Assembly: GCA_964448985.1 (NCBI GenBank)
Contig: CAYVBI010000004.1
Span: 1 to 36,033, forward strand
Direction of reading: 5' to 3'
DNA from: an uncultured Dehalococcoidales bacterium
GTDB lineage: Bacteria > Chloroflexota > Dehalococcoidia > GIF9 > UBA5629
DNA length: 36,033 bases
How positions within the stretch are numbered: position 1 is the first letter of the stretch; every line of letters begins with the position of its first letter. Positions 2,273 to 33,129 of the stretch are shown here, piece after piece. Below the pieces are notes generated by a model. That model was not told the DNA's origin and did not search any database. It saw only the letters and a program-made list of their open reading frames with translations. Position numbers and translations under genes: made by a program.

Positions 2273-2812
2273 TTATTTCAGCTTCAACGGCAGGCCTGCC
2301 GTCAAGAGGATGACTTCGTCGGCCGCCCCGGCCAGGCGCTGGTTGGCCTTGCCCAGGGCGTCGCGGTATTGCCGCGCTAAAGCGTTGTCTGGCACAATGC
2401 CGCTGCCGACCTCGTTGGAGACCAATATGAAACTACAGCGTGATCGCTGTATCAGGCCGATGAGATTGTCGACCTCGGCATCGACTGACTTTTCAGCCGC
2501 CGCATAATCAATAGCCTTACCCATGCAGTTGGCGGTCAGCAATGTTATGCAGTCTACTATGACCGTGTCGTACCTTCCGGCTTCATCTGCGAGAGCTGCC
2601 GCCAGGTTGTCTTTAACCTCCAGCGTGTCCCAGCCGGGCGGGCGCGACCGCCTGTGCGCCTGTATACGCTCCCGCATCTCCTCATCAAGCGGCTGGGCCG
2701 TTGCGCAGAAGAGCACCCTGCCGCCCCTGTCCGCGGCCATCTGCTGGGCGTACGAGCTCTTGCCGCTGCGCGCCCCTCCCAGTATCAGTACGATTCTCTT
2801 ATCCGCGGTCAT
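2273..2812 (-). CDS. cobU: Bifunctional adenosylcobinamide kinase / adenosylcobinamide-phosphate guanylyltransferase
   Basis: Motifs LILGGARSGKSSYA, DEEMRERIQAHR, VDCITL, VSNEVGSGIVP, YRDALGKANQ, AGLPLKLK. ATG at 2812 preferred over TTG at 2818. Confidence 0.96.
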   Translation of the reverse strand: MTADKRIVLILGGARSGKSSYAQQMAADRGGRVLFCATAQPLDEEMRERIQAHRRSRPPGWDTLEVKDNLAAALADEAGRYDTVIVDCITLLTANCMGKAIDYAAAEKSVDAEVDNLIGLIQRSRCSFILVSNEVGSGIVPDNALARQYRDALGKANQRLAGAADEVILLTAGLPLKLK

Positions 2813-2818
2813 AACCAA

Positions 2819-3706: not shown

Positions 3707-4782
3707 GATACACCTCCCCCGGGGATATCGGACACGCCGGCCCCCTCGAAGGTGGACATGTCGCGCATCAGGCTGATCGAACACTCCGCTAAAAATATGC
3801 CCAGCGCCGCCCCAGTGCCTTCACCCAGGCGCAGGTCGAGCTCCAGCAGCGGACGCAGCCCCAGGTGTTTCAGGCAGGCGGCGTGTCCCCTCTCCGCCGA
3901 GAGGTGTGCGGCTATCAGGTGATTTTTAATCTGAGGGCAGATGCCAGCCGCTATCAGGGCCGCAGCGCCGGAGATAAAACCGTCGATAACCACCGGTATG
4001 CGGTTGGCCGCCCCCGCTATCATAACGCCGGCCAGCCCCCCTATCTCGAAGCCTCCCACCTTCTCCAGCACTCCGATTGCATCGCCGGGGTCCGGTTTAT
4101 TGACCGCCAGGGCCTGCTCGATGACCTTGACCTTGTGTTCCAACTGCTCATCACCGATGCCGGTGCCGCGTCCCGTCACATCGCGTACCGCTAAGCCCGT
4201 CATGGCCGCCGTGATGGCGCTGGCAGAGGTGGTATTTCCGATACCCATGTCGCCGGTGCCCAGTATGTCAAGGCCCGCAGCCAGCTCGTTTTCAAGGATC
4301 TCCGATCCTGCCAGAAGGCTGTCCATAGCCTGTTCCCGGCTCATGGCCGGGCCGGCGCTCATGTCACCCGTGCCGAAATCGATCATTTTACAGATGATTT
4401 TTTCATATGACGGCAGCCCGCCTTTCACTCCCATGTCCACGATCACCACGCGTGCCCCGACCATGCGGGACAGTACGTTGATAGCGGCGCCCCCCGCTGC
4501 GAAGTTGAGGGCCATCTGGCAGGTAACCTCCTGCGGATAGAGGCTGACGCCGCGGGCGACCACCCCGTGATCGGCTGCCATGGTGATGATTACCTTGTCC
4601 TTGATGCGCGGGATCACCTCTCCGCGTATGCCGGCAATCTGTATGGCCAGGTCCTCCATCGCTCCCAGGCTGCCGCGCGGCTTGGTCAGACTGTTCAACC
4701 TGCGTCTGGCGGCTTCCCGGAACGAAGAGTCGGGGTGCCCTACACGGCTTATAAGATGCTCAAGCTTTTGTGCTTTATCCAT
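3703..4782 (-). CDS. cobT: Nicotinate-nucleotide--dimethylbenzimidazole phosphoribosyltransferase
   Basis: Motifs LTKPRGSLG, AADHGV, GGAAIN, GDMGIGNTT, GRGTG, VGGFEIG, DGFI, LRLGEGTGA. Confidence 0.97.
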   Translation of the reverse strand: MDKAQKLEHLISRVGHPDSSFREAARRRLNSLTKPRGSLGAMEDLAIQIAGIRGEVIPRIKDKVIITMAADHGVVARGVSLYPQEVTCQMALNFAAGGAAINVLSRMVGARVVIVDMGVKGGLPSYEKIICKMIDFGTGDMSAGPAMSREQAMDSLLAGSEILENELAAGLDILGTGDMGIGNTTSASAITAAMTGLAVRDVTGRGTGIGDEQLEHKVKVIEQALAVNKPDPGDAIGVLEKVGGFEIGGLAGVMIAGAANRIPVVIDGFISGAAALIAAGICPQIKNHLIAAHLSAERGHAACLKHLGLRPLLELDLRLGEGTGAALGIFLAECSISLMRDMSTFEGAGVSDIPGGGVS

Positions 4783-4785
4783 GCT

Positions 4786-5310
4786 TTAATACTCGATTCC
4801 CTTGCGCTGATGTACACCTTCCGAAAAGGGGTGCTTGATCATGAGCATCTCGGTCACCAGGTCGGCCTTCTTGATCACCTCCTGCGGCGCCTTGCGTCCT
4901 GTGAGTATAAGCTCCACGTTGGACGGCTTCATTTTTATCAGGTCCACTATCTGCGCCAGGCTGATCATCCCCCGCCAGTGAGCGATGAATATCTCATCCA
5001 GCACCACCATGTCGTACTTTCCCCCGCTCAGGGCGTTCACCGCATAATCGTAGGCCTGCCGCGTCTCAGCCAGCAGTTGCTCTTCTCCCTTCTTGAAAAT
5101 GTCGCCTTTGCCGAACTGGACGATCTCGAAGGGTCTGTACTTATCGGCAAAGAAATGCTCTCCCCCGAGCTGCGTTTTAAGGAACTGGATGAAGATCACC
5201 TTCAGGCCCTGCGCACAGGCCCGCAACGCCTGTCCCAGCGCAGCGGTGGTCTTGCCTTTGCCATCGCCCGTGTAAACCTGTACCAGCCCTTTAAAATCCT
5301 GTTCTGCCAT
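4786..5310 (-). CDS. cobO: Cob(I)yrinic acid a,c-diamide / corrinoid adenosyltransferase (CobA/CobO/BtuR family)
   Basis: Motifs VYTGDGKGKTTAALG, QFLK, VVLDEI, ELILTGR, ADLVTEM, KHPF, RKGIEY; GGAGG RBS upstream. Confidence 0.95.
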   Translation of the reverse strand: MAEQDFKGLVQVYTGDGKGKTTAALGQALRACAQGLKVIFIQFLKTQLGGEHFFADKYRPFEIVQFGKGDIFKKGEEQLLAETRQAYDYAVNALSGGKYDMVVLDEIFIAHWRGMISLAQIVDLIKMKPSNVELILTGRKAPQEVIKKADLVTEMLMIKHPFSEGVHQRKGIEY

Positions 5311-5358
5311 GAGGTCCTCCGCAAGTAATATTGTACAGCATGGGCGTCAGTCCACTTT

Positions 5359-6429
5359 CTATGCCATCGCTGAAATAGCCTGAGCCAGCTTTCTGCAGTC
5401 CTCCATCCGGCGCGGTGATATGCGCACGTAGGCCGGCAGTCCGAAGGACGAGCAGTCACGTACCAGGAATCCCCTTGCGAGCAGACTGCTTTTAAAACCG
5501 GCGGCGTCTCCAACCCTGACCAGGAAAAAGTGCGTGTCGGTGGGGATCGTCCTGTATCCGGTCTTGAATAGCCGGCCTGTCAGGTAAGCCCTGGATTTAT
5601 GCATCCGGTCGTTGCACTGCCGGACATAATCGCCACAGCCCATGGCCGCTATGCCCGCACGCTGGGCCGGTGAGTTTACGTTCCACGGCGGACGCACCTT
5701 TTCCAGACTGCGGATGATGGCCGGGCAGGCCAGACCGTATCCCAGACGCAGGCCGGCCAGGGCGAAGTCCTTGGTCATGGACCGGACGATTAAAACGTTG
5801 GGCTCATCTGCAAGGTCGCGCTCACCGGAGGTTTTCCCGGTAAACGCCATGTACGCCTCGTCCAGTATTATCAGTGTATCGGGGAAGCCTTTCACAAACC
5901 TGCGCAGGTCCTCCCGCGGGAGCAGTTGCCCGGTGGGATTGTTGGGATTGCACAGGAAGACAGCCACGGGATTGTGCGGCTGTGCGAAGGAAGCGAAATC
6001 ATCCAGGCGCAATCGGAAGTCCCGGTCCTCGGGCAGTATATATTTGACGATGGTGGCCCCGGCGATACTGCCGGCCAACTCGTATTCGCCGTAAGTCGGC
6101 GAAACTATGATAACCGTATCGCCCGTTGCCAGATAGGCCAGAGCGGCCAGCCTGATGATCTCGGTCGAGCCGCTGCCGGCTATTACCCTGTCGGCGGCTA
6201 TTTCCAGGTTGCCGGCCAGGGATGCCACCAGTTCGCCTGAACCAGGATCTGGATAGTCTGTGATATTCGTTACACGCAGGGCGCGATATACTTCCCGCGG
6301 CGGACCATAGGGATTGCAGCAGGTGCTGAAGTCCAGCACGCCGGCGGTTTCTTTCAGCCCGGCGTAGCCCGCTCCTCCATGTTCGATGGGAGGCAGGCTG
6401 TTGATATGGGGATTAACGCGCAAGGCCAA
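5359..6429 (-). CDS. cobD: Threonine-phosphate decarboxylase (class I/II PLP enzyme, HisC-like)
   Basis: Motifs HGG..DFSTCCNPYG, LCNPNNPTG, DEAY, RSMTKDFALAGLRLGY, PWNVN; directly downstream of cbiB. Confidence 0.85.
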   Translation of the reverse strand: MALRVNPHINSLPPIEHGGAGYAGLKETAGVLDFSTCCNPYGPPREVYRALRVTNITDYPDPGSGELVASLAGNLEIAADRVIAGSGSTEIIRLAALAYLATGDTVIIVSPTYGEYELAGSIAGATIVKYILPEDRDFRLRLDDFASFAQPHNPVAVFLCNPNNPTGQLLPREDLRRFVKGFPDTLIILDEAYMAFTGKTSGERDLADEPNVLIVRSMTKDFALAGLRLGYGLACPAIIRSLEKVRPPWNVNSPAQRAGIAAMGCGDYVRQCNDRMHKSRAYLTGRLFKTGYRTIPTDTHFFLVRVGDAAGFKSSLLARGFLVRDCSSFGLPAYVRISPRRMEDCRKLAQAISAMA

Positions 6430-7348
6430 CCAGCGCCTCCACTGCAGCGATCATTATTACCCACATACCCGCGGATGTCAGCATCACGGCCTGTGCCTGC
6501 GACACCACGGCGCTCGACAGGGCGTCTCTGCCGCCTGTCAGCGTGTATTCGCCGCTTTTTTCAAGCTCGATGCCCAATGAGCCGGCCATGGAGCACATGG
6601 TCCAGCCTGCATTGGGGCTGGCGGTCCTCCCGTGCTGTTTCAACATGGTACGCCAGCTTCCGTTGACGTCAGCCCGGCAAACGCCGGACGCGATTACGAT
6701 CAGCAGCGCGCTCAAACGGGATGGAATGAAATTGAGAGCGTCATCCAGGCGGGCTGCGAATTTGCCCGTGTATTCCCAGCGGCCGTGGTATCCGATCATG
6801 GCATCGAAGGTATTTACGATACGATATATCATGGCCCCCGGTAGGCCCAGGACGGCGAAATAGAAAAGCGGCGCTATAAAGCTGTCGCAGAGGTTTTCCG
6901 CGCAGGACTCGACGGACGCCGACATAAGTTGTTCTCCCGTTAAGCCGGAGGTGTCCCGGCTGACCAGCGCCGTTGCCTTCAGCCTGGCCTCTGCCGCATC
7001 ATTGCGTTTCAGACACAGCTTGACGTCTTGCACGGCCTGCCACAGTCCTCTCAGGGCGAAGGTGTTCTTGAACAGATAGGCTGAAACAACTATATAGATG
7101 ACCGGATTGAGGCTGAGCAGGAATGCTAAAGCGAAGTAGAGCGGCACGATTACGGCGATACAGGTCGCAACGACTATGACGGCCCCGTAAACTAATTGCC
7201 GCCGCGGCCCCGCAGGCGGCTCGAATTTCAGCTCCAGGGAGATGAGTTTGCCAAGCCAGGCCACGGGATGCCAGCGATTGGGGGCTTCTCCCATTAGCGC
7301 ATCCAGCAGCAGCGCCCCGCACAGTATATACAGGCCCGAAAGCTCCAC
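6413..7348 (-). CDS. cbiB: Adenosylcobinamide-phosphate synthase
   Basis: Motifs HPVAWLGK, LVSRDT, VESCAENLCDSFIAPLFY, YRIVNTFDAMIGY, AARLDDALNFIPSRL, SPNAGW. GTG start overlaps the btuD stop. Confidence 0.95.
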   Translation of the reverse strand: MELSGLYILCGALLLDALMGEAPNRWHPVAWLGKLISLELKFEPPAGPRRQLVYGAVIVVATCIAVIVPLYFALAFLLSLNPVIYIVVSAYLFKNTFALRGLWQAVQDVKLCLKRNDAAEARLKATALVSRDTSGLTGEQLMSASVESCAENLCDSFIAPLFYFAVLGLPGAMIYRIVNTFDAMIGYHGRWEYTGKFAARLDDALNFIPSRLSALLIVIASGVCRADVNGSWRTMLKQHGRTASPNAGWTMCSMAGSLGIELEKSGEYTLTGGRDALSSAVVSQAQAVMLTSAGMWVIMIAAVEALVGLAR

Positions 7349-8145
7349 TATCGGCCCTCCACTTTGTTCGCTGACGTTACCAGCGCCGTGGGCAGTCCGT
7401 TGACCGGGTGAGCATAGACGGCGACGTCGACACCGAAAGCCTCTTTGAGTGTGGATGTGTCAATAACATCATGCGGCCCGCCCTCTTTATACATAGCGGC
7501 GTCCTTGAGCACAATAATCCGGTCGCCGAACTGCGAGGCCAGGTTGACGTCATGGAGGGCTGAGATAATGGTCAGCCCCTTGTCCCGGCAGAGCTTTTTA
7601 AGAAAATCCAGTATGCCTGCCTGATAATTGATATCCAGGTTGGCCGTGGGCTCGTCCAGCAGCAGTATCCCGGCCTCCTGTGCCAGAGAGCGGGCAATCA
7701 GCACCCGCTGCCGCTCACCGCCGGACAGCTGGTTAATGCGCCGGCCGGCCAGCCGGGTGGTCTCAGTGGCCTCCATGGCGTTGGCTACGGCCAGGATATC
7801 GCTGCTGCCCTCGTACCTGAGCAGGCCCAGGTGCGGTGTGCGTCCCATCAGCACGATCTCCATGGCCGTGAAAAGCTCGGGCAGGAAAGCGCTCTGCGGC
7901 ATCAGGGCTATATTGCGGGAGATATATGTGCGGCTATAGCTGCCCATCGGCCGTCCGTCCAGGTTGATCGAACCTTCGAACGGCCTCAGCAGTCCGCACA
8001 TGCCCTTGAGCAGCGTGCTCTTGCCGGAGCCGTTCGGTCCGATCACCGTTAAGAACTCACCGGGCCGCGTCTGCAATGTGATATCGTGAAGGGCCGTCCT
8101 TTCCCCGTATCTGAAGCCTGCTTTTATGAGGGAGATGACCGGCAT
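7348..8145 (-). CDS. btuD: Corrinoid ABC transporter ATP-binding subunit
   Basis: Walker A GPNGSGKST, signature LSGGERQR, Walker B LLLDEPT, H-loop LHDVNLA. True start is ATG 8145 (TGATG overlap with btuC); the ORF-track extension to 8574 overlaps btuC. Confidence 0.9.
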   Translation of the reverse strand: MPVISLIKAGFRYGERTALHDITLQTRPGEFLTVIGPNGSGKSTLLKGMCGLLRPFEGSINLDGRPMGSYSRTYISRNIALMPQSAFLPELFTAMEIVLMGRTPHLGLLRYEGSSDILAVANAMEATETTRLAGRRINQLSGGERQRVLIARSLAQEAGILLLDEPTANLDINYQAGILDFLKKLCRDKGLTIISALHDVNLASQFGDRIIVLKDAAMYKEGGPHDVIDTSTLKEAFGVDVAVYAHPVNGLPTALVTSANKVEGR

Positions 8146-9206
8146 CAGAACACCGCCTTTTTCTTCTGATTCAGCAGGTAGAGGAAGAAGGGCGCGCCGA
8201 TGATGGCGGTGATGATGCCGACGGGTATCTCGGCCGGGGCCATGATAGTCCTGGCGGCCGTGTCCGCCAGTATCAGGAAAGCCGCGCCCCCCAGCAGGGA
8301 CATGGGAAGGAGCAGGCGGTAGTCCGGCCCGCAGGTCATCCTCACGGCGTGGGGGATAATGATGCCCACGAAACCGATGGCGCCGCAGAAACATACGGCT
8401 GCGGCCGTTGTCAGCGTGGCCGCCACCAGAATAATCAGCTTGGTGCGCTCGACATTGATACCCAGTTGTTCGGCCTGCTCCTCGTCCAACTGCATCACGT
8501 TGAGCGGACGTGCCATCAGCAGCAGTACGGCCGCGCCGGCGAATACATAGGGTATCATAACTCCCACCCGCCACCAGTCAGCCAGGGCGAAGGTGCCCAG
8601 CAGCCAGAAAACAATGCCGTGCACCTTGTCATTCGAGATAATGATGAGATAGGAAGTAATCGAGGCCAAAAACGCCCCTACTGCTACACCGCCCAGTATG
8701 AGTGTAGTAACGGGCAGCGTACGGCCCGTCCTTGCTATGGAGTAGACCGCCGCCACGCTGAGTATGGCGCCCAGGAAGGCCAGTACGGGCACCAGGGCAG
8801 CCGGCACGGCAGCCGGAAGCAAAAAGCCGGCGACGGCTCCCAGCGCCGCACCCTGCGAGATGCCTGTGAGATAGGGATCGGCCAGCGGGTTGCGGAACAT
8901 GCCCTGGTAGGCCGCGCCCGCAACTGCCAGCGCAGCTCCGGTAAGGCCGGCCATGATGATGCGCGGCAGCCGGATGTCCCAGATAATCGTATTATAGACG
9001 GCCGAATAGGCATCGGCTTGATCGGGCGTAAATATCCTTGCCTGCAAAATAGCGAAGATATCATGTATGGGTATAGCCGTGCTGCCGGCTGTGATGGCCC
9101 ACAGGCCTACCGAGGCCAGTATCAGGGCCGACAGAATTAAAATTAACCGCCCGCGGCGTACTCTGGCGCGGTGCAGGTCCAATTCAGTTTTTAAGGCTGC
9201 GTCCAT
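8145..9206 (-). CDS. btuC: Corrinoid ABC transporter permease (FecCD/BtuC family)
   Basis: Motifs IWDIRLPR, FRNPLADPY, GAIGFVGIIIPH, EIPVGIITAIIGAPFF; B12 specificity inferred from the riboswitch and cob context. Confidence 0.9.
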   Translation of the reverse strand: MDAALKTELDLHRARVRRGRLILILSALILASVGLWAITAGSTAIPIHDIFAILQARIFTPDQADAYSAVYNTIIWDIRLPRIIMAGLTGAALAVAGAAYQGMFRNPLADPYLTGISQGAALGAVAGFLLPAAVPAALVPVLAFLGAILSVAAVYSIARTGRTLPVTTLILGGVAVGAFLASITSYLIIISNDKVHGIVFWLLGTFALADWWRVGVMIPYVFAGAAVLLLMARPLNVMQLDEEQAEQLGINVERTKLIILVAATLTTAAAVCFCGAIGFVGIIIPHAVRMTCGPDYRLLLPMSLLGGAAFLILADTAARTIMAPAEIPVGIITAIIGAPFFLYLLNQKKKAVF

Positions 9207-9234
9207 CTCGATGTTTCTTTTTCGCGGAGGTGAT

Positions 9235-10161
9235 TTATTGCGTAGACTTGCTGAAGAGGTCCGGGTGCAGGAAGGATGCGGTTTGTTCCAGGGCCGATAT
9301 GCAGCGGGGGCTGTGGCGATATATCAGGTCCCCCTCGATCTTATAGACCCGGCCGTTCTTGACTGCGGAAGTATTGCTCATGCGCGGGTCGGTGGTAATG
9401 AAGTTCCACAATGGATCGCCCTCGTTATCCATGCTGGTCGGCACGATGATGACCTGTGGGTCGGCGCTGATGATTGACTCAAAGTTCATGGAGGCGAAGC
9501 CGTTGATTTCCGTGGCTATATTAGTCCCTCCCGCCAGCCCTATGATGTCGTCGATGAGAGTGGATTTGCTCGCCACCATCAGCGGATCATTCCAGATGAT
9601 GAGCAACGTACGCGGGCGCAGGTCGGGCGCCAGTCCTGCGGTCACTGCTGTAACAGCATCCACGCGTTTTTGCAGTCCGGCGGTCAGCGTTGCGGCGGCC
9701 TGATCGGCGCCGGCCAGCCTGCCGGTAAGAGTGATATCTTTGATGACGCTCTCCACCGTTTTGGGAGAAATAGTAATAACACGGAAGCCCATCTTCTGTA
9801 GCTGCGGTGTAACGCTTTTGTTATGGATTTCGGTTGCGAGCACCAGGTCGGGCTTGAGCCCCACCGCTCTCTCGATGTCCACCGTGCTGAATCCCCCCAC
9901 TTTGGCCTTGTCCCTGGCGGCAGGCGGATAGTTGCAGAACTCCGTCACGCCCACCAGCCTGTCTTGCAGCCCCAGGGCGTAGACTATCTCGGTGTTGGCC
10001 GGGGCCAGCGATATTATGCGCTCTGCGGGCGGCGCAGTTGTTATGGGATTGCCGGAGTCGTCTCTCATCTCCGCCGGCATGGACGGGGCAACGCACGCGC
10101 ATATAAACAGGAGAGCGGCCAGCGCCGTGTAGATCGATAATTTTCGCCGTGCAGTTTTCAT
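9235..10161 (-). CDS. btuF: Corrinoid ABC transporter substrate-binding protein, possibly a lipoprotein
   Basis: Motifs RIISLAPANTEIVYALG, VGVTEFCNYP, GGFST, AVKNGRVY. ATG 10161 has GGAGG at 10172-10168; the ORF-track start 10221 would run through the terminator. Confidence 0.9.
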   Translation of the reverse strand: MKTARRKLSIYTALAALLFICACVAPSMPAEMRDDSGNPITTAPPAERIISLAPANTEIVYALGLQDRLVGVTEFCNYPPAARDKAKVGGFSTVDIERAVGLKPDLVLATEIHNKSVTPQLQKMGFRVITISPKTVESVIKDITLTGRLAGADQAAATLTAGLQKRVDAVTAVTAGLAPDLRPRTLLIIWNDPLMVASKSTLIDDIIGLAGGTNIATEINGFASMNFESIISADPQVIIVPTSMDNEGDPLWNFITTDPRMSNTSAVKNGRVYKIEGDLIYRHSPRCISALEQTASFLHPDLFSKSTQ

Positions 10162-10181
10162 ACTTAACCTCCGTAGATAAC

Positions 10182-10209
10182 AAAAAACCCCTGCTCCCGC
10201 GGGCAGGGG
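10182..10209 (-). terminator. Intrinsic terminator / attenuator in the btuF leader
   Basis: Minus strand CCCCTGC-CCGCGGGA-GCAGGGG followed by TTTTTT, between the riboswitch and the btuF RBS. Confidence 0.85.
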
Positions 10210-10233
10210 GATCGTTAACAAATAACAAATCCC

Positions 10234-10484: not shown

Positions 10485-12866
10485 ATGACGTTTAATAAAA
10501 TATGGTCCTGGGCCATCGTGATAGTACTCCTTCTGACTATTGTAATGTTGGCGCTCTGGCTGAGGATTGCGCTCCCCTATGATCAGGTGTTTGTCGGGGA
10601 TTGGGTGAAGATGACGGGTGTGGACGCCTATTACTACATGCGCCTGGTAGATAACCTGATGAAACACTTCCCGCAGCTCACGCAATTCGATCCCTATCTA
10701 CTCTATCCCGGGGGCGTGCTGACCGGGTTACAGCCTGATTTCTTCGCTTATTTCATGGGCGGTATCATATGGCTTCTCAGCCTGGGAAATGCCGATCAGC
10801 ATACTGTGGACGTAATATCGGTGTATATTCCGCCTGTGCTGGCGGTGTTGACCATACTGGCCGTGTTCTTTATCGGCGTACTGCTGGGCAGCAGGTGGCT
10901 GGGGCTGATGTCCGCCGGATTGCTGGCCATCATGCCAGGGGAGTTCCTCAACAGGTCGCTGCTGGGCTATACCGACCATCATATCGCCGAGGTAATGTTC
11001 TCCACAGCCATCATGCTGTTTGTTTTCCTGGCCGTGCGAGTGAGCCGGGAAAGGAGTATAGGCGTGCTGACAAAGGCTGGCTGGGGCGGCATCGGGAAAA
11101 TGGTGACGTTCAGCGCCCTGGCAGGAATTTTTATGGGATTGTACATGTTGACCTGGTCCGGCGCTCTGATGTTCGCCCTGATCATTTTTATATTTATCGT
11201 GGCGCAGGCCATTATCGACCATTTGCACGGTTGGGCTGTCGATTATCTGGGCGTCCTGGGCGCCTGTCTTTTCGGGGTGGGGTTGATTATGTACCTGCCG
11301 TGGATCAAGAGCACGATGACGGTGGTGGGACTCGCTATGGGGTTGCTGTTGTCCGTGCTGTTGCCTCTTATCTCCAGATGGATGAACGGCAGGGGATTGA
11401 AACCGCTTTATTATCCTGTTGTGATTGCGGGACTGGCTGTGCTGGGCGTGGCGTTACTGGCGCTGGTAAGCCCGTTGATATTTCAATTGATGGCAGGCAG
11501 CATGGCCAACATTTTCATCTGGCCCGTGGGGACGACCGTAATGGAGATGCAGCCTCTCCTCATTCAGCAGGGTAATTTCACCTTTGCAGTGGCCCTGGGC
11601 AACTATATGCTGGCCTTTTTCTTAAGCCTTGTATGTATAGCGGTTCTGTTCTACCAGGTGATAAAAAGTGGCCGGGCGGACAGGACACTGCTGCTGGTAT
11701 GGAGCATCATTATTTTACTATCGGCGCTGTCCATGCGGCGTTTCGCCTATTATTTCGCGGTCAACGTCGCGCTGCTGACGGGCTATCTCTGCTGGGTACC
11801 GCTTGACGCGCTAATCAGGAAGAAATACGCGTCAACGGCGGCAGCAGCAACTATGAGAACCGCGGCCAGGGGAAAGAAACGTGCGGCAAAGCAGGCGCAG
11901 CAGTCGAGGTCGGCGAAGCGGACCTCCATGCAGGGCAACTTCGCAATCGCAGCGGTACTGGCTCTGTTAGTGCTGCTGGTGTATTACCCCAATATCGGGC
12001 CGATGCCCGATGGGCAGAAGCCCTCAGTCGACCTGGCCACGCGGCCTTTGTTCGCCCCTTCAAATGCGTGGTGCGAGGCCGTGGACTGGCTGAGGACAGA
12101 AACCCCTGAACCGTTTGGCGATGCAGATACTTACTACGGATTATATAAACCCGTTAACCGGCAGGGAGGATTCGAATACCCTTCCGGCGCCTACGGGATT
12201 ATGGCCTGGTGGGATTACGGCTACTGGATCGCCAGGATAGGTCAGCGGCCACCGGCCACCAACCCGGGGACTGGTCATCTCGGATCGGCTTATTTCTTTA
12301 CTTCCCAGGATGCCCCGTCGGCTGAGCGGGTAATAGACGCATATGGTTCACGTTATGTGATCGTTGATGACCAGATAGCCGCCTATGACGGCAAATTCCA
12401 TGCGCTGGCCTCCTTGAGCGGCTCGGATTACTCGCACTATTACGATATGTTCTTAACCAAACAGAATAACCAGTATGTGCCGTCGATCCGTTTTTACCCG
12501 GAGTATTACCGCAGCATGGTCAGCAGGTTATATAATTTCGACGGGAAGGCTGTGGCGCCGGGGAGCGTTGATGTTATTGCGTACGATGAGTTCACGGCTC
12601 AGGATGGAGGACAGTATAAAGAGATCATCGATAGCCGAAAATTCAACTCATATTCAGCGGCAGAGCAGTTTATCAAAGAAAATGCGGGAAAGAATTACAT
12701 TATAGCCGGCCAGGATCCCGGTGAAAGCCCTGTACCGCTGGACGAATTGAAGGACTACAAGCTCGTTTACAGTTCGCAGCAAAAAGTGCCTGTGGGATCG
12801 AGGTCCCAGCCCAGTATCAAGATATTTGAGTATGAGAGCAATTCGACTCCACCGGCAGGCGATTAG
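10485..12866 (+). CDS. aglB: STT3-family oligosaccharyltransferase, euryarchaeal AglB type
   Basis: Many N-terminal TM helices. Motifs GVDAYYYMR, FDPYLLYPGG, RSLLGYTDHHIAE, TVMEMQP (TIxE-like), RRFAYY, MAWWDYGYWI (WWDYG at 12207-12221), GKFHAL. ATG 10485 preferred over TTG 10422 because a promoter lies between them. Confidence 0.95.
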   Translation: MTFNKIWSWAIVIVLLLTIVMLALWLRIALPYDQVFVGDWVKMTGVDAYYYMRLVDNLMKHFPQLTQFDPYLLYPGGVLTGLQPDFFAYFMGGIIWLLSLGNADQHTVDVISVYIPPVLAVLTILAVFFIGVLLGSRWLGLMSAGLLAIMPGEFLNRSLLGYTDHHIAEVMFSTAIMLFVFLAVRVSRERSIGVLTKAGWGGIGKMVTFSALAGIFMGLYMLTWSGALMFALIIFIFIVAQAIIDHLHGWAVDYLGVLGACLFGVGLIMYLPWIKSTMTVVGLAMGLLLSVLLPLISRWMNGRGLKPLYYPVVIAGLAVLGVALLALVSPLIFQLMAGSMANIFIWPVGTTVMEMQPLLIQQGNFTFAVALGNYMLAFFLSLVCIAVLFYQVIKSGRADRTLLLVWSIIILLSALSMRRFAYYFAVNVALLTGYLCWVPLDALIRKKYASTAAAATMRTAARGKKRAAKQAQQSRSAKRTSMQGNFAIAAVLALLVLLVYYPNIGPMPDGQKPSVDLATRPLFAPSNAWCEAVDWLRTETPEPFGDADTYYGLYKPVNRQGGFEYPSGAYGIMAWWDYGYWIARIGQRPPATNPGTGHLGSAYFFTSQDAPSAERVIDAYGSRYVIVDDQIAAYDGKFHALASLSGSDYSHYYDMFLTKQNNQYVPSIRFYPEYYRSMVSRLYNFDGKAVAPGSVDVIAYDEFTAQDGGQYKEIIDSRKFNSYSAAEQFIKENAGKNYIIAGQDPGESPVPLDELKDYKLVYSSQQKVPVGSRSQPSIKIFEYESNSTPPAGD

Positions 12867-13014: not shown

Positions 13015-13037
13015 TTGTGTATTAAGAATTGAATGAG

Positions 13038-14255
13038 ATGAAAATACCGATAGCAAAGCCATATATTGGGGAAGAGGAAAAGCGAGCAACAGCTGCGGTG
13101 CTGGAATCAGGCTGGTTAGTGCAGGGTGCTAAAGTAGCTGAGTTCGAGACGATGGTATGCAAATTTACAGGCGTGAAATTTGCAAAGGCATCGAGTTCAT
13201 GTACTACGGCTCTCCATCTTGCACTGGTTTCATTGGGGATTGGTCCCGGTGATGAAGTGCTTGTTCCCTCGTTTACATTTGTTGCATCTGCTAACGCAAT
13301 TGAATATACAGGAGCAAAGCCGGTTTTTATTGATATCGATCCCAAAAGTTTCAACATCGATGTTGACGGGCTGGAAAAGTACCTGTCGCGCAAGAAAAAT
13401 CAAGGGGCAAGGGTGACTGCAATCATGCCTGTTCACCTGTTCGGTCTGTGTGCCGATGTGAGTGGGATCATGGAATTGGCTAAACGGTATGATCTCCTTG
13501 TTATTGAGGATGCCGCATGTGCACTGGGAAGCTACTGCGGCCCCCATCATGCCGGGACTATGGGCGATGCGGGTTGCTTTAGTTTTCACCCTCGCAAGCT
13601 CATAACCACCGGAGAGGGTGGCATGGTTGTCACTAACAGCCCGGACATCTCCAGTTTTGTTTCCAGTTTAAGAGATCACGGAGCATCGGTTTCCGATCTG
13701 GAGAGGCACAAGAAAAACAGCAGTGTGCTTCCCGAATACGACCGTATAGGCTATAACTATCGCCTAACCGATATTCAAGCGGCTATAGGCATAGAGCAAA
13801 TGAAGAAGCTGCAGTGGATCATAGACAGGAGGGCGGAGAAAGCCGCCAGGTATAACGAAGGCCTAGGGGATATTGAATGGCTGCAAATACCACATGTACC
13901 GGAGGGATACAGGCACAGTTACCAGTCCTATGTGGTTATTGTGCGCGATCAGGAGAATGATCTTATGTCGCTGCATAAGATTGACATATTACGCAATATC
14001 CGGGACGCAATAATGGCCAAGCTTGCTGAGAGAGGAATTGCCACTAGACAGGGGACCTCGGCCGTGCATAGGTTAGGTTATTATCGTAACAAGTATGGGC
14101 TGAAAGACAATGATTTCCCGGTTTCTCTTCAAGCGGAGCAGCTGACTATTGCTCTGCCCTTATACCCGCAAATGACCGATGAAGAACAGGATTATGTGAT
14201 TGAAAACCTGCATCAGGCGGTAGGAGAAATTTCACTGTCAAGGGCACGCAAATGA
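13038..14255 (+). CDS. DegT/DnrJ/EryC1/StrS-family PLP sugar aminotransferase
   Basis: Motifs SSCTTALHLAL, GPGDEVLVPSFTFVASANA, PVHLFG, IEDAACALG, FSFHPRKLITTGEGG, GYNYRL, LPLYP. Confidence 0.93.
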   Translation: MKIPIAKPYIGEEEKRATAAVLESGWLVQGAKVAEFETMVCKFTGVKFAKASSSCTTALHLALVSLGIGPGDEVLVPSFTFVASANAIEYTGAKPVFIDIDPKSFNIDVDGLEKYLSRKKNQGARVTAIMPVHLFGLCADVSGIMELAKRYDLLVIEDAACALGSYCGPHHAGTMGDAGCFSFHPRKLITTGEGGMVVTNSPDISSFVSSLRDHGASVSDLERHKKNSSVLPEYDRIGYNYRLTDIQAAIGIEQMKKLQWIIDRRAEKAARYNEGLGDIEWLQIPHVPEGYRHSYQSYVVIVRDQENDLMSLHKIDILRNIRDAIMAKLAERGIATRQGTSAVHRLGYYRNKYGLKDNDFPVSLQAEQLTIALPLYPQMTDEEQDYVIENLHQAVGEISLSRARK

Positions 14256-14905
14256 TTCACGAAACTGTCAGGCTTTACGGTAAAAACACGATCGATGACA
14301 GTTGCTGGTTGCTGGAGGACGTGATCATCGGTTATCCCGATGCCGAGATATTCAATGAGATAAAAAAACACGGTCATAAAATTGAAGATCATAAATTTGT
14401 TGGATCAACTATTCAAGCAAATGCATTGATCAGGTCCGGCACCATTATCTATTGTAAAGTAAATATTGGTAAAAACTTTCGTAGCGGACATCGTGTTTTG
14501 ATCAGAGAAAAGACAGTTATTGGAGAGAACGTTCTTATTGGCAGTAATGTGATAATTGAGGGACATGTCAACATCGGAAACAATGTCAGCATTCAGAGCA
14601 ACGTTTATATTCCTACCAATTCGGTGATCGCCGATTTTGTATTCATCGGCCCCAATGCAGTGCTCAGCAATGATAAATATCCTCCGATGAGGAAAATTAC
14701 GAAGATGAACGGGCCTGTACTGAACAGGGGCGTATCAGTGGGTGCTAACGCCACCATATTGCCTGGCGTAGAAATCGGGGAGGGGAGTATGGTGGCCGCC
14801 GGCGCCGTTGTCGTTAAAAACGTGCCTCCCTGGACTCTGGCGGTTGGCGTTCCGGCCAGATGTACAGACCTGCCCCGAGATACCAAGGTGATCAATAAGC
14901 TGTAA
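14252..14905 (+). CDS. Hexapeptide-repeat (left-handed beta-helix) sugar N-acetyltransferase, WbpD-like
   Basis: Hexapeptide repeats IGENVLIG, IGNNVSIQ; VFIGPNAVLSNDKYP, VGANATILPGVEIG, GVPAR. Confidence 0.88.
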   Translation: MIHETVRLYGKNTIDDSCWLLEDVIIGYPDAEIFNEIKKHGHKIEDHKFVGSTIQANALIRSGTIIYCKVNIGKNFRSGHRVLIREKTVIGENVLIGSNVIIEGHVNIGNNVSIQSNVYIPTNSVIADFVFIGPNAVLSNDKYPPMRKITKMNGPVLNRGVSVGANATILPGVEIGEGSMVAAGAVVVKNVPPWTLAVGVPARCTDLPRDTKVINKL

Positions 14906-14925
14906 TTGTACGCGAGGTTAATCGT

Positions 14926-15831
14926 ATGAGAGTAGGAGTTATCGGCGCTGGTGTGATGGGCAGGCACCATGCAAGGGTTTATCACGAGCTGGGCGCCGAC
15001 CTTGTCGGTATAGCCGACATAGATATAAAGAAGGCTCAAGAGGTAGCCGATAAATATCAAACCAAGGCCTTTAAAAAATATGCGCAATTATTGGAACAGG
15101 GGCTGGACGCTGTTAGCGTAGCGGTACCCTCGAAGTTGCACAGTGTGGTTGCGGTAGATGTTGCCGAACATGGAGTTAATATGCTGGTGGAGAAGCCCAT
15201 TGCTGATACGATGGAGAGCGGAAACAAGATCATCGATGTGGCCAGGAAAGCCAATGTAATTCTCATGGTAGGGCATATTGAGAGGTTTAATCCGGCAGTG
15301 CAAAAACTGGTACAGATTATTAGTGAAGGAGTACTCGGTGACCTGGTGGTATTATCATCCAGAAGAGTGGGACCTTTCGTAACCAGGGTAAAGGATATAG
15401 GGATCACCATGGATGTTGCTTCCCATGACATAGATATTGCCAGGTATTTAACAAACAGGGAACCAGTTGAGGTACTGGCAAAATCAATTAATGTGAAAAA
15501 CAAAAAAGGCGATTGCGCCATCATGATTCTGGATTTTGGCCGGGTGACCGCCTCCATCGAGGTTAACTGGTTTACTCCGCATAAGGTCAGAAGCCTGGTT
15601 GTAACGGGAACTGATGGAATAGCCTACGCTGATTATATCGAACAGAGCGTGACAATTTTTAATTCATCTTGGAAAATGGAACCAAAGATTGAGAAAGGCG
15701 AGCCATTGCGACTGGAGTTGAAGCATTTCTTGGAATGTGTTGAACAGGGGAAAGAACCTTTGATCAGCGGCGAAGACGGCCTCAGGACGCTGGAGATCGC
15801 CTTGAAGATAGAGAGGAGCTCGTTCAAATAA
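14926..15831 (+). CDS. Gfo/Idh/MocA oxidoreductase, likely UDP-HexNAc(A) 3-dehydrogenase (WbpB/GnnA-like)
   Basis: Motifs GVIGAGVMGRHH, LVEKPIA, VGHIERFNPAV, DVASHDID; adjacent to an aminotransferase and acetyltransferase. Confidence 0.85.
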   Translation: MRVGVIGAGVMGRHHARVYHELGADLVGIADIDIKKAQEVADKYQTKAFKKYAQLLEQGLDAVSVAVPSKLHSVVAVDVAEHGVNMLVEKPIADTMESGNKIIDVARKANVILMVGHIERFNPAVQKLVQIISEGVLGDLVVLSSRRVGPFVTRVKDIGITMDVASHDIDIARYLTNREPVEVLAKSINVKNKKGDCAIMILDFGRVTASIEVNWFTPHKVRSLVVTGTDGIAYADYIEQSVTIFNSSWKMEPKIEKGEPLRLELKHFLECVEQGKEPLISGEDGLRTLEIALKIERSSFK

Positions 15832-16811
15832 TGAATTTGAAAAATAAGTCGGTGCTGGTAACAGGCGGCGCCGGTTTCATCGGAAGCCACCTGGTGGACC
15901 GTTTGGTTAAAGAGAAGCCGTCAAATATCATTGTCGTAGACAACTTTTACCTCGGGAAAGAATCAAATCTGCGGGATGCCAGATTGAATTTCCCGTCGCT
16001 TAAGATTGTAAAAATGGATTGCTCGGATCAGAAAAAGATGGAGAGGCTGGTTAAAAATGAGGACGTTGACGTTGTCTTTAACCTGGCGGTGATACCCCTG
16101 CCGATATCTCTGATTGAGCCATGCTGGGTTTATCGGCATAATGTCGACATGGCGCTTAGCGCCTGTGAGCTGGCCCGCAAGGGTTTCTATAAAACACTGG
16201 TACATTTTTCATCTTCGGAGGCATATGGGGATTGTCAATATGCGCCGATGGATGAGGGACATCCACTTAATCCTACGACATCATACGGCGCCAGCAAAGC
16301 TGCCTGCGACCATCTGATCCTTTCATACTGCAAATCGTTTAGAATCGATGCCGTCATTATAAGGCCGTTCAACAACTACGGGCCGCGTCAAAACGAAGGG
16401 AGCTATGCCGGAGTAATTCCAGTAACCATCAAGCGCATTCTTGGCGGTGATAGTCCCATTGTCCATGGAGACGGCGAACAGACCAGGGATTTTATATATG
16501 TTGCCGATACAGCCGAAGCTGCAATTAAGGCGTATAACTGTTTGAAAACCAGGGGCAAAATATTAAATATAGCCAGATCGAAGGAGATTTCGATAAACAG
16601 TCTGGTCGCACTCATAACTGAACACCTGCAATGCAGCAAACCTGTTATTCATGATGAAGAGAGACCCGGAGACTTAAGAAGACTTGTCGGCAGCACTGTT
16701 TTGGCCAAAGAACTAATTGGATTTGAGCCGATCACATCCTGGCAAGATGGACTGAAATCGACGATACAGTGGTTTAAAAAAGCGAGACATAATGTTTCCG
16801 TTAAGAAATGA
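15831..16811 (+). CDS. NAD-dependent nucleotide-sugar epimerase/dehydratase (extended SDR)
   Basis: Motifs LVTGGAGFIGSHL, SSSEAYG, YGASK, RPFNNYGPRQ, GDGEQTRDFIYV. Confidence 0.92.
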   Translation: MNLKNKSVLVTGGAGFIGSHLVDRLVKEKPSNIIVVDNFYLGKESNLRDARLNFPSLKIVKMDCSDQKKMERLVKNEDVDVVFNLAVIPLPISLIEPCWVYRHNVDMALSACELARKGFYKTLVHFSSSEAYGDCQYAPMDEGHPLNPTTSYGASKAACDHLILSYCKSFRIDAVIIRPFNNYGPRQNEGSYAGVIPVTIKRILGGDSPIVHGDGEQTRDFIYVADTAEAAIKAYNCLKTRGKILNIARSKEISINSLVALITEHLQCSKPVIHDEERPGDLRRLVGSTVLAKELIGFEPITSWQDGLKSTIQWFKKARHNVSVKK

Positions 16812-17413
16812 CGGAGGTTTTCAAAGTGTTACCCGAGAGCGAAAAATACCAAACAGAGCGCGCAATACTGACAAAACTGCGGCAGCTGTATAAAAATCTG
16901 AGAAAGGAATTCCGACAGAAATGGGATCGTGACTTTCCTTTTGAAGAGATACTTTTTGATAGATGGGAAAGGGCAAATGATTTAGGCTTTGGTGAAGGTA
17001 CAAGCATCTATCATAGCAGTTATGTTTATGGTGATGTAAAGGTCGGTAAAGGTGCCTGGATAGGACCCTATACACTGCTTGATGGATCAGGAACCCTGGT
17101 TATTGGCGATCACTGTAATATTTCTTCCGGGGTGCAGATATATACGCACGATAGTGTTAAGAGGGCATTGACCGGAGGAATCGCACAAATTGAACATGCG
17201 CCTGTAGTTATAGGTGATTACTGCTATATTGGCCCACAAACTGTGATAACAAAAGGTGTTACTATCGGAGATCATAGCGTTATTGGTGCCTGTTCCCTGG
17301 TAAATAAGGACATACCGCCTTATTCAATAGCTATGGGAATACCATGCAGGATAGCCGGTAATGTTGAAATCGCTGAATCAGACGTAAAATTCCGCTATTT
17401 AAATGACCATTAG
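16808..17413 (+). CDS. Second hexapeptide-repeat acyltransferase
   Basis: Motifs VKVGKGAWIGP, IGDHCNISSGVQIYTH, IGDYCYIG, GVTIGDHSVIGA, GIPCR. Confidence 0.87.
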   Translation: MTEVFKVLPESEKYQTERAILTKLRQLYKNLRKEFRQKWDRDFPFEEILFDRWERANDLGFGEGTSIYHSSYVYGDVKVGKGAWIGPYTLLDGSGTLVIGDHCNISSGVQIYTHDSVKRALTGGIAQIEHAPVVIGDYCYIGPQTVITKGVTIGDHSVIGACSLVNKDIPPYSIAMGIPCRIAGNVEIAESDVKFRYLNDH

Positions 17414-17502
17414 GTGTGTATTATTGAAGCACCCTGCTTATAGTGGAAGCCTTACTCACGATATATTTTGTAGTGCATATTAATACCGGGTGGAGCTTTT
17501 AT

Positions 17503-18517
17503 TTGGGGTATAGATCTATAGTCAATAACATTCCAGGTCTCGAAAAACTATATAGTGCCTACAATTATCTGGATAGGCGGCGTTATGTGAGCTTTGCCAA
17601 TTATCCACACACGATCAGTATTGAATTAACCACCAGATGCAACTCGGTGTGCACATATTGTCCACGTGGGGATCTGGTAAACCGTAATATAAGAAAGATT
17701 CAAGACATGGACTTTAAATTGCTGGAACATATAATTCAACAAATTCGTGTTTCGAAATTTGAACCTCGGGAAATATCGCCTGTCGGATTGGGAGAACCCA
17801 TGTTATATGGAGACCTGATCCCGGCTATCCGTTTGATTAAACGCGAGTTACCATCAGCCTATCTTTCATTGAATACAAATGGTATTCATTTCACTAAAGA
17901 GCAGCAGGACGCTTTGATATCAAATAACGTGGATTGCCTTACAATCAGTCTTAATTTTCATTCCCGTGATATCTATATAAAACACTGCGGTATCGGCGCC
18001 TTTGACCAAGTGTGCACGAATATTGAGCGCTTTCTAAAAGCGAAGCGAAGCAATAAACCTAAGACTATAATACAGATACTCGATATTGATGATAATGTGC
18101 GGGATATGGTGGATTTTAAATCGTTCTGGTCAAAGAGAATAAATTCAAATGACACAATTAGTCTCAGGCCATTTTGTGACTTCGGAGGTACCGTAGCGAT
18201 CTCACAATATAAAGATTAAGAAGAGGTCAGGGAGAAGATATCCCTGCGAGCAGGTATTTAATCAGTTGATGATAAATGTTACGGGCGATTGTTTCCCGTG
18301 TTGCATGGGAATTACTACGGATAGCGATGATTCCCTGTGCATTGGAAATATCAAATACAAAAGTATCACCGATATGTACGCAACTGATTCCAAAGTCCAG
18401 GGTATTCGCAATATGCACAGAATGGATGACTATAGTTCGCTAAATATGTGCAGGGCATGTGATACATGGTTTGTACCTTCGAATATATTCGTAAGCATCG
18501 GTAACAAATGGTATTGA
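17503..18517 (+). pseudogene. Radical SAM + SPASM/twitch protein split by a +1 frameshift near 18197-18216
   Basis: The first frame has IELTTRCNSVCTYCPR, GLGEP, NTNG and ends at TAA 18217-18219. The +1 frame reads KIKKRSGRRYPCEQVFNQLMINVTGDCFPCC..IGNI..CRACD. Probable start is TTG 17503 behind GGAG (alternative GTG 17443). Confidence 0.75.
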
Positions 18518-18565
18518 TGAATCACGGATGCTAATACTGATAGTGCAGGAAATCTGATCATAAGT

Positions 18566-19822
18566 ATGGCTGAAAAAACAGGAGTAAATTTGGGAGACGA
18601 CATCTCTAAACCTGCTTTTAGCGGCAAACGAAAGCGGGTTTTTATCGGCCTGAATGAAATAGCGAATATTAGTGCTACATATGCAAAGGCTTTCCAGAGG
18701 CTCGGTTTTCTGACCTACACGGTTGTCCTGGATAAAAATCCTTATTTTATCGATGAACAATATGACGTGGTAATTGCCGAGAAAATCGGGCGTTTCCATG
18801 GCAGTTCCCTTAATCGTTTTTTTTCGCTGGTGTTTCAGCATTTAATTCTATGTATAGAATTTATTAAAACTTTATTCTGCTGCGATATTTTTATATTTAT
18901 ATACGGCAGCTCTTTTTTTTCGGAAAGCCATATTGACTATCCAATTTTAAAGTTAGCCGGCAAGAAAATAGTAACTATTTTTTGTGGCTGCGACATAAGA
19001 CACTGGTCAGCGTATGAACAGGAATTTGAATCATTGGAATTAGGAACCCTGTATAAGTCTTGCTGTGACGATTGTGATTCAAGGACATCTTGTTATTTAA
19101 CCAGGAAAATCGGAATTGCTAAAGCTGTCGAGAAATACAGTGATTTGATTCTTTCCCAGCGGAATCAATCTCAGTTATTAAGGCGTCCATATATGAGGAT
19201 TAATATACCCTTGATACTGTCGAGATATGAGTTTAATGTGCCGGCCAGAGACATACCCGTGGTTGTTCATGCGCCAACCAACCGGTCGATAAAAGGCACG
19301 GAACAAATAATTGAAGCGGTGAAGAAGCTGAAGGGAGAGGGAATAGAATTCGAATTTCGCTTTATTGAAAACTGTGACAATCATGAAGTACTTAAGATTC
19401 TATCTGATGCAGATATTGTTGTAGACCAGTTATATGCGCAAACAGTTGCTCTGCTGGCTCTGGAATCACTGGCTACCGGTAACGTTGTACTGATCGGCAG
19501 CATGCCGGGTTATGAGCTTATACCCGGTGATTGTCCTGCCATCTACATAAATCATGATAATTTATATAATGAACTTAAGGGCATTATCCTTGATAAGCAA
19601 CGCCGAATATTATTAGCTAAAGCCGGCAGGAAATATGTGGAGACTTATCACAATCATATAACTGTTACTAAACAGGTTCTTAATTGGTTGAAACCAGGCG
19701 GTATAAAGAAATATGATTATTATCCTGATTTTGCACAGAAGCACTATAAAATATCCGTTGATGTGTTAAAGAAAGAGAAGTTCTATCTGGTCAAGGATAT
19801 ACTTCGATTTCTCCGCCGATGA
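18566..19822 (+). CDS. GT-B fold glycosyltransferase (GT4-like, divergent)
   Basis: Motifs GCDIR, VVHAPTNRSIKGT, ADIVVDQL, LALESLATG, GRKYVETYH. Confidence 0.75.
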   Translation: MAEKTGVNLGDDISKPAFSGKRKRVFIGLNEIANISATYAKAFQRLGFLTYTVVLDKNPYFIDEQYDVVIAEKIGRFHGSSLNRFFSLVFQHLILCIEFIKTLFCCDIFIFIYGSSFFSESHIDYPILKLAGKKIVTIFCGCDIRHWSAYEQEFESLELGTLYKSCCDDCDSRTSCYLTRKIGIAKAVEKYSDLILSQRNQSQLLRRPYMRINIPLILSRYEFNVPARDIPVVVHAPTNRSIKGTEQIIEAVKKLKGEGIEFEFRFIENCDNHEVLKILSDADIVVDQLYAQTVALLALESLATGNVVLIGSMPGYELIPGDCPAIYINHDNLYNELKGIILDKQRRILLAKAGRKYVETYHNHITVTKQVLNWLKPGGIKKYDYYPDFAQKHYKISVDVLKKEKFYLVKDILRFLRR

Positions 19823-19865
19823 AATATGGATCACATATCCCCGATGATTTGAAGTGGCATAGACG

Positions 19866-21323: not shown

Positions 21324-21369
21324 TCAGCGGTGGATCGGTGATATAAAAAGAACATGGCCGGATAGTTAA

Positions 21370-24608: not shown

Positions 24609-24611
24609 TAT

Positions 24612-33124: not shown

Positions 33125-33129
33125 TCAGG

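Follow-up and report, generated by a model that had tools for sequence, protein, structure and literature searches.

The aglB-like gene described here lies on the forward (+) strand at positions 10485..12866 of a 36,033-nucleotide (nt) stretch of DNA from an uncultured Dehalococcoidales bacterium (contig CAYVBI010000004.1, positions 1 to 36,033), referred to below as the window. It encodes a protein of 793 amino acids (aa; P0001), which TIGR04154, Pfam and the fold predicted by AlphaFold2 (AF2) place among the single-subunit oligosaccharyltransferases (OSTs). Corrinoid salvage and uptake genes precede it on the reverse (-) strand, and glycan-synthesis genes follow it on both strands. The open reading frame (ORF) runs from an ATG at 10485 to a stop codon ending at 12866 with zero internal stops; the initial annotation had given exactly these coordinates, and its claim of an intact gene is borne out by the uninterrupted 793-aa frame. 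An alternative TTG start at 10422, located 63 nt upstream of the ATG, would lengthen the protein by 21 residues. The ATG at 10485 is the start position in close homologues (789-793 aa) and in the consensus of the 44-sequence family alignment.

Family, fold and catalytic positions

TIGR04154 (oligosaccharyl transferase, archaeosortase A system-associated) is the sole NCBIfam match of the aglB-like protein, with 586 bits where the cut-off is 450 (E 1.4e-175). The match covers aa 13-783 and profile positions 1-740 of 831, and the part of the profile left over represents the C-terminal region of archaeal members. Pfam recognizes an STT3 membrane domain (aa 26-434) and an AglB_core-like domain (aa 528-632), while STT3-PglB_core gave no match at E<=0.01 and the C-terminal AglB_L1 domain (PF18079) was not found by Pfam in this protein. 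The OST architecture of an N-terminal polytopic membrane domain and a C-terminal globular OST-fold domain is recovered by Pfam, AF2 and Foldseek. In a single-sequence search of Protein Data Bank (PDB) sequences, the best match is Archaeoglobus fulgidus AglB-L (AfAglB; 4e-46). The profile of the family, built like the AF2 input from an alignment of 44 relatives (A1), reaches AfAglB at 3e-87 and human STT3B at 1.6e-13, as well as STT3A and yeast Stt3, and PglB chains are absent from its 20 PDB matches at E<=10.

The AF2 model has a mean predicted local distance difference test score (pLDDT) of 77.8 and a predicted template modeling score (pTM) of 0.77. The top 19 Foldseek matches in the PDB are OST catalytic subunits without exception, led by AfAglB (7E9S; E 2.4e-28; query-normalized template modeling score [TMq], 0.70). 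Yeast and human STT3 form a second tier (TMq 0.50-0.61), and Campylobacter lari PglB ranks 17-19 (E 7e-10 to 1e-8; TMq 0.44-0.46). The aglB-like protein is an AglB-type OST by family and fold. This agrees with the initial annotation, which had called the enzyme AglB type rather than PglB type and had proposed a hidden Markov model comparison of archaeal STT3 models with PglB; run here, that comparison falls clearly on the AglB side, with TIGR04154 exceeding its cut-off and AfAglB best by both profile and fold. Close relatives at 73-78% identity (P0003, P0005, P0006, P0009, P0010, P0012, and others) occur in a short form of ~790 aa, to which the protein of the window belongs, and in a long form of 1016-1074 aa with an extra C-terminal tail of ~250 aa. 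The tail of P0012 has a weak FG-GAP-like repeat under the Pfam cut-off, and that of P0003 has no match.

All six strings on which the initial annotation relied are found in the 793-aa translation, and in a pairwise alignment the motifs match the functional motifs of AfAglB residue for residue (coordinates on the + strand throughout). GVDAYYYMR (aa 45-53; 10617..10643) is the first acidic motif, in external loop 1, and its Asp47 aligns with Asp47 of AfAglB. The second metal-binding motif, TDHHIAE (aa 163-169; 10971..10991), comprises D164-H165-H166, aligned with AfAglB D161-H162-H163, and then E169. TVMEMQP (aa 351-357; 11535..11555) contains the TIXE motif of external loop 5 (EL5), with T351-V-M-E354 corresponding to T-I-A-E360 of AfAglB, and is predicted to supply the sequon-pairing strand and the catalytic Glu. 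Arg419 (11739..11741) aligns with AfAglB Arg426 at the phosphate site of the lipid-linked donor. WWDYG (aa 575-579; 12207..12221) corresponds to WWDYG 550-554 of AfAglB and is predicted to accommodate the +2 Ser/Thr of the sequon. A variant DK motif with an insertion, D628 ... K637-F-H-A-L641 (12366..12407), takes its lysine from GKFHAL (aa 636-641; 12390..12407); K637 aligns with AfAglB K618, which points to a Lys-type Ser/Thr pocket.

The roles of these positions are known from AfAglB, in which D47, D161, and H163 hold the metal, E360 works via water, the TIXE strand is the pairing partner of the sequon backbone, K618 is at the peptide site, and R426 and H81 are at the phosphate site (PMC8342417). 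The WWD motif is described as the pocket for the +2 Ser/Thr (PMC10859629). The variant DK motif E<>KXXX(M/I/P) is reported as the type of Halobacteria, Archaeoglobi, and Methanomicrobia (PMC3703281); the motif of the aglB-like protein differs from it in ending in Leu. D47, D164, H166, E169, T351, E354, P357, R419, W575, W576, D577, and K637 are invariant in all 44 sequences of A1. The motif match is not due to chance, because the protein as a whole matches TIGR04154 at E 1.4e-175.

Two of the signatures proposed initially need to be restated. The DHH of the second motif is present here, but position 165 varies among the 44 sequences (H 26, Y 14, Q 3, S 1), and the 120 listed homologues carry DHH in 63 cases, DYH in 41, DQH in 10, and DSH in 1, with no match in 5. 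The conserved second motif is therefore D-x-H rather than DHH. The Lys/Arg-rich stretch RGKKRAAKQAQQSRSAKR (aa 462-479; 11868..11921), between the last two membrane helices, had been listed as a catalytic signature; it belongs instead to a variable loop that is poorly conserved in A1. This loop (aa 421-485, 65 residues) has 12 K/R versus 1 D/E, lies between hydrophobic segments 402-420 and 486-504, and has a pLDDT of <50 in the AF2 model. By the positive-inside rule, it is predicted to be cytoplasmic and without a catalytic role.

An enzyme with this fold could also transfer glycan to a target other than Asn, such as a lipid or wall polymer, could hydrolyze lipid-linked glycan, or could be inactive in its host. 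AfAglB hydrolyzes its donor as well (PMC8342417), the protein targets proposed here are presumed ones, and Foldseek also matches non-OST GT-C enzymes such as DPY19 and ArnT. However, these matches are far weaker (E 2e-7 or worse versus 2e-28), and the pocket formed by WWD and Lys637 and the TIXE strand, all invariant in 44/44 sequences, would be useless outside N-X-S/T recognition. The family is moreover large and conserved, with 800 representatives at E<=1e-30. We consider such a role improbable and favor transfer to Asn.

Bacterial host and archaeal relatives

The corrinoid flank (2273..10221, -; Pfam, NCBIfam) comprises CobU, CobS, CobT, CobO, CobD, CbiB, an ATP-binding cassette (ABC) ATPase, BtuC, and BtuF. 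Ten flank genes occur in the same order, at 68-93% aa identity, beside the aglB orthologue in L001, L002, and L003, the loci of three Dehalococcoidia or Dehalococcoidales metagenome-assembled genomes (MAGs). Bacteria account for 76 of the 79 related loci kept, including 59 from Chloroflexota, 7 from Acidobacteriota, and 5 from Planctomycetota; the 3 archaeal matches are weak. Several of the Chloroflexota loci are on contigs of 0.76-2.0 Mb, the named proteins among the best 120 matches are from Dehalococcoidia or Chloroflexi, and the nearest Atlas clusters are 89-95% Bacteria. The host of the aglB-like gene is a Dehalococcoidia bacterium, a point on which the initial annotation had been silent, and the euryarchaeal host expected from TIGR04154 is not what the flank, syntenic with Dehalococcoidia MAGs, indicates.

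We give very little credence to the alternative that the contig is archaeal, for example, a mis-binned fragment from Methanomicrobia or anaerobic methanotrophic archaea (ANME), and that the gene is a regular archaeal AglB in the kind of host where such genes normally occur. This alternative can draw on a protein score above the cut-off of TIGR04154, a model built for Euryarchaeota, and on the presence in the window of DUF2206 and DUF1616 genes, Pfam families that we take to be mostly archaeal. It is also in line with the GlcNAc 3-dehydrogenase-like protein of the GFO family, whose best model is the archaeal UDP-GlcNAc 3-dehydrogenase of NCBIfam (392 bits, below the cut-off of 450). The CobU of the flank, however, is of the bacterial type and above the NF004469 cut-off; archaea generally use CobY in place of CobU. 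Further, the three Dehalococcoidia MAG contigs that share the synteny of the flank (16-149 kb) were assembled independently, and the Chloroflexota contigs that encode relatives reach 2.0 Mb. The labeled archaeal proteins, finally, form a separate clade and carry the AglB_L1 domain that is absent here.

The full-library search recovered 2553 representatives at E<=1e-3, in addition to the count at E<=1e-30 given above. Among the top 150 representatives, one unlabeled clade is archaeal, in which P0205 is from "Ca. Methanophaga" (ANME-1) and P0255 from "Ca. Syntropharchaeia"; these two and the other archaeal representatives score 300-380 bits. A search with P0205 led to labeled AglBs of Methanophagales, Methanospirareceae, Methanomicrobia, Syntrophoarchaeum, Methanocellales, and Halobacteriota, which, unlike the bacterial proteins, have the AglB_L1 domain. 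Among archaea, the AglBs of Halobacteriota are the closest relatives. An IQ-TREE phylogeny (67 rows, 757 columns, posterior mean site frequency [PMSF] mixture model), in which archaeal sampling consists of relatives of P0205, places the 13 labeled archaeal proteins in one clade with 100% support in the Shimodaira-Hasegawa-like approximate likelihood ratio test (SH-aLRT) and groups the aglB-like protein with those of L001-L003 in a Chloroflexota clade. Outgroup rooting, which involves three very long branches and is not relied on, placed the archaeal clade among bacterial lineages. When the 40 bacterial rows were constrained to one clade, the PMSF likelihood was slightly better than that of the free tree (-79015.85 versus -79018.75), and the approximately unbiased (AU) test of iqtree2 under LG+F+G4 rejected neither tree (p 0.59 free, p 0.41 constrained). 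With bacterial monophyly not rejected and archaeal sampling partial, the bacterial clade may be the sister, the donor or the recipient of the archaeal one. A few bacterial homologues have been found inside a euryarchaeal clade, with at least two archaea-to-bacteria transfers argued (Lombard, PMC4973528). An archaellum transferred to Dehalococcoidia and Anaerolineae from Methanotecta, a group related to the Halobacteriota, has also been described, in a report that does not mention AglB (PMC12488501).

Some Chloroflexota encode two AglB-type paralogues, as in L038 and L070 (same 759,519-bp contig) and in L010 and L037 (same MAG), and the paralogues of one genome fall into different clades of the tree. 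The divergent intergenic region between btuF and aglB (10222-10484) measures 263 nt. Rfam at gathering thresholds gave zero matches there and in the whole window, with no recognizable cobalamin riboswitch before the corrinoid operon, and a tRNA scan found no tRNA genes in the window. The ORF of the ABC ATPase and the permease gene (7348-8574, -, and 8145-9206, -) overlap by ~430 nt as listed. The ABC domain begins only at residue 162 of that ORF, and the true start of the ATPase is probably further downstream. A large protein with He_PIG (immunoglobulin-like) repeats and a hydrophobic N-terminal segment is cut off by the window end (3-2123, -). It is kept beside the cob genes in L002 at 76% identity, has 5 N-X-S/T sites in its visible 707 aa, and is a possible surface protein.

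Predicted sequon and the glycan genes

The position that would correspond to PglB Arg331 was located by sequence spacing from the catalytic Glu354. Yeast D362 lies 12 residues past the yeast catalytic Glu. The same spacing separates Arg331 of PglB from its catalytic Glu319; D362 is described as the yeast counterpart of Arg331, and eukaryotic OSTs as lacking an equivalent of this Arg (PMC7226087, PMC10859629). In the aglB-like protein, E354+11 is F365 and E354+12 is T366, and AfAglB has one additional residue in the stretch matching E354 to E354+12. Arg or Lys occurs at neither of the two positions in any of the 44 sequences, and the first basic residue after E354 is K394. The position singled out by the initial annotation therefore holds no Arg/Lys when located by Glu spacing, and because the slot is occupied by Phe/Thr, the enzyme can probably do without an acidic residue at -2. 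Archaeal OSTs are reported to use N-X-S/T (PMC12229607), and a plain N-X-S/T sequon is likely for the present enzyme on the basis of its residues.

An active enzyme might still recognize an extended or restricted motif, with a bacterial-style rule imposed by residues other than the Arg331 equivalent. Sequon rules of PglB homologues do not follow Arg331 alone (PMC12229607), and EL5 is variable near TIXE, with R/K at position 356 in 6 of the 44 sequences and at position 362 in 4. The aglB-like protein has Gln at both positions, however, and no basic residue from E354 to K394. The nearest solved relative and all characterized archaeal OSTs use N-X-S/T (PMC8342417, PMC12229607), and PglB is the most distant OST relative by profile and fold. 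We judge a restricted motif to be rather unlikely and retain the short sequon as the predicted one.

After aglB, a co-directional glycan-synthesis cluster extends over 13029..25787 (+; Pfam, NCBIfam). It encodes a DegT aminotransferase, two hexapeptide acetyltransferases, the GlcNAc 3-dehydrogenase-like protein, an epimerase/dehydratase, and a radical S-adenosylmethionine (SAM) enzyme, together with a 418-aa protein with no assigned function, a Wzx-type flippase, two family 4 glycosyltransferases (GT4), and an AsnB-like amidotransferase. On the opposite strand (25814..35411, -; Pfam, NCBIfam) are genes for a DUF2206 polytopic membrane protein, a methyltransferase, a DUF362 protein, a glycosyltransferase (GT), an epimerase, an AglJ/PpgS-like GT2, GlmS, and a DUF1616 protein. 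The GC content declines along this order: the flank stands at 0.594, aglB at 0.536, and the island at 0.451, with 0.416 in 16808-21323. Synteny with L001-L003 stops directly after aglB, beyond which the glycan genes vary by locus; the first four island genes (DegT, acetyltransferase, dehydrogenase, and epimerase) are common to L003 only. Glycan genes follow aglB in 7/7 loci examined, 5 of which include a Wzx-type flippase, and the window itself has the same arrangement with such a flippase. The island thus has the look of an exchangeable glycan cassette with aglB as its anchor.

The DegT aminotransferase, a hexapeptide acetyltransferase, and the GFO-family dehydrogenase are grouped at 13029-15831 (+), and together they likely encode a route to a 2,3-diacetamido-2,3-dideoxy sugar. 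The radical SAM enzyme (17443-18219, +) lies inside the glycan cluster, and the 418-aa protein (18566-19822, +) matches no family, with sub-threshold GT1-like matches only. The DUF2206 protein (25814-28225, -) has 803 aa and many hydrophobic segments, with no PDB sequence match and no family besides DUF2206. It is near the AglJ/PpgS/GtrB-like GT2 (32429-33124, -), a polyprenyl-phosphate sugar synthase type by family match, and a homologue at 44% identity also adjoins aglB in L002. The two may act as an outer-face glycosyltransferase and its supplier of polyprenyl-phosphate-sugar.

In the mechanism that we propose, the island enzymes would work at the cytoplasmic face, where they would construct a glycan on its polyprenyl-phosphate carrier, and the Wzx-type flippase would move the lipid-linked glycan outward. 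The OST would bind a divalent metal via Asp47, Asp164, and His166 and position the donor phosphate with R419. The acceptor backbone would pair with the T351-V-M-E354 strand of external loop 5, the +2 Ser/Thr would be read by W575-W576-D577 and Lys637, and the glycan would be transferred en bloc to the Asn of N-X-S/T in secreted or surface proteins, the presumed targets.

Our reading is that the ORF provides its Dehalococcoidia host with a functional single-subunit N-oligosaccharyltransferase of the AglB (archaeal) type, which acts at N-X-S/T and probably needs no acidic residue at -2; we put the probability of this reading at roughly 0.7. Several observations weigh against it. The phosphate-site residue His81 of AfAglB has Gly81 as its counterpart in the alignment (column 81 in the 44 sequences: G 28, D 7, T 3, S 2, A 1, other 3), and donor binding may therefore differ from that of AfAglB. 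EL5 residues 345-369 have a pLDDT of <50, as would be expected for a mobile loop, and the model is unreliable at the -2 pocket. Relaxed Desulfovibrio PglBs ignore the -2 rule yet keep Arg331 (PMC12229607), which makes this Arg an imperfect predictor of the rule; the initial proposal that a conserved Arg331 equivalent would speak against the short sequon is thus only half valid. The exported proteins in the window are few, and their N-X-S/T counts are too small to inform. Going by its name, TIGR04154 would be expected to occur together with archaeosortase A and PGF-CTERM proteins in one genome. These were looked for in the window and in related loci out to 10 kb on either side, and a crude regular expression applied to this local DNA found no PGF-CTERM-like tail in the 5311 ORFs of the window and 79 loci. 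NCBIfam identified no archaeosortase among the 30 proteins of the window, and BtuF matches a model of PGF-CTERM-anchored binding proteins over positions 3-272 of 330 at 151 bits versus a cut-off of 325. Neither the window nor the region after aglB in the 7 loci was seen to encode an initiating phosphoglycosyltransferase (Bac_transf, Glycos_transf_4). Finally, in the open literature searched, we found no report of activity, a glycopeptide, or a lipid-linked donor for any member of the bacterial clade.

Neither the gene family nor its motifs nor its occurrence in bacteria is new, and the NCBI and JGI pipelines label the relatives correctly. We found no published work on the AglB-type enzymes of Dehalococcoidia in a search that did not extend to subscription journals, and it seems unstudied how large the bacterial AglB-type clade is, how far it extends across taxa, and what part it plays in the biology of Dehalococcoidia. 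Bacterial N-glycosylation is usually framed around PglB of Campylobacter and its Desulfovibrio relatives; here, an aglB-type gene occupies a fixed site in Dehalococcoidia genomes and heads a variable glycan island. If the enzyme is active, the surface proteins of abundant Dehalococcoidia would be N-glycosylated in the archaeal manner, and the clade would be a possible source of OSTs joining a short sequon with bacterial lipid carriers. Many of these bacteria are reported to be without peptidoglycan, whose loss is placed in Dehalococcoidales and the marine radiation by a paper that also describes S-layers (PMC10284905). We tentatively suggest, with more doubt than confidence, that peptidoglycan-less, S-layered Dehalococcoidia run archaeal-style N-glycosylation with polyprenyl-phosphate donors and the short N-X-S/T sequon, and that a large bacterial AglB-type radiation, its enzymes natively adapted to such donors, reaches Acidobacteriota and Planctomycetota. 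If true, bacteria would possess, in addition to PglB, a second N-glycosylation system that is widespread and unstudied; it would parallel the archaellum transfer from Methanotecta to Chloroflexota (PMC12488501) and would offer OSTs that might work in Escherichia coli without the -2 rule. The use in glycoengineering raised by the initial annotation is a reasonable lead and at present speculation: heterologous AglBs often fail in other hosts (PMC5131992), and relaxed PglBs already work in E. coli (PMC12229607).

Comparison with known systems

The closest characterized system is AfAglB (PDB 3WAJ, 3WAK, 5GMY, and 7E9S), which has the same fold (TMq 0.70) and shares the motif set of xxD47, D-H-H, T-x-x-E, WWDYG, the variant DK motif with Lys, and the phosphate-site Arg. 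The two proteins are only 21-23% identical in the structural alignment, and they differ in the AglB_L1 peripheral domain, which AfAglB has and the aglB-like protein lacks, and in the replacement of His81 by Gly81. The donor of AfAglB is a mono-phosphate. We infer the carrier lipid and its phosphate number for the bacterial enzyme, where polyprenol rather than dolichol is expected, the host being bacterial.

The AglBs of Halobacteriota (Methanocellales, Methanomicrobia, Syntropharchaeia, and Methanophagales/ANME-1) belong to the same NCBIfam subfamily, TIGR04154. By regular expression, DHH is found in 86 of 103, the other 17 giving no match. Unlike the aglB-like protein, they contain AglB_L1 and form their own clade (100% SH-aLRT).

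PglB of C. lari and Campylobacter jejuni is likewise a single-subunit bacterial N-OST with a GT-C fold, WWD and TIXE motifs, and a gene located in a glycan cluster. Of the three OST types, C. lari PglB is nevertheless the one furthest removed (TMq 0.44-0.46, 12-13% identity). PglB is characterized by the MI motif (an Ile-type pocket), D-x-D, Arg331, and the D/E-X-N-X-S/T sequon (PMC7226087, PMC10859629, PMC3703281), with D154 and D156 as its second-motif residues (PMC7226087). The aglB-like protein has instead a predicted Lys-type pocket (K637), D-x-H, and no Arg at the Arg331 slot as located by spacing. The relaxed-sequon Desulfovibrio PglBs, such as that of D. marinus, are also bacterial single-subunit OSTs that use N-X-S/T without an acidic -2 residue; unlike the aglB-like protein, they belong to the PglB lineage and keep an Arg331 equivalent and an SVIE motif, and they work in E. 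coli with undecaprenyl-diphosphate donors (PMC12229607).

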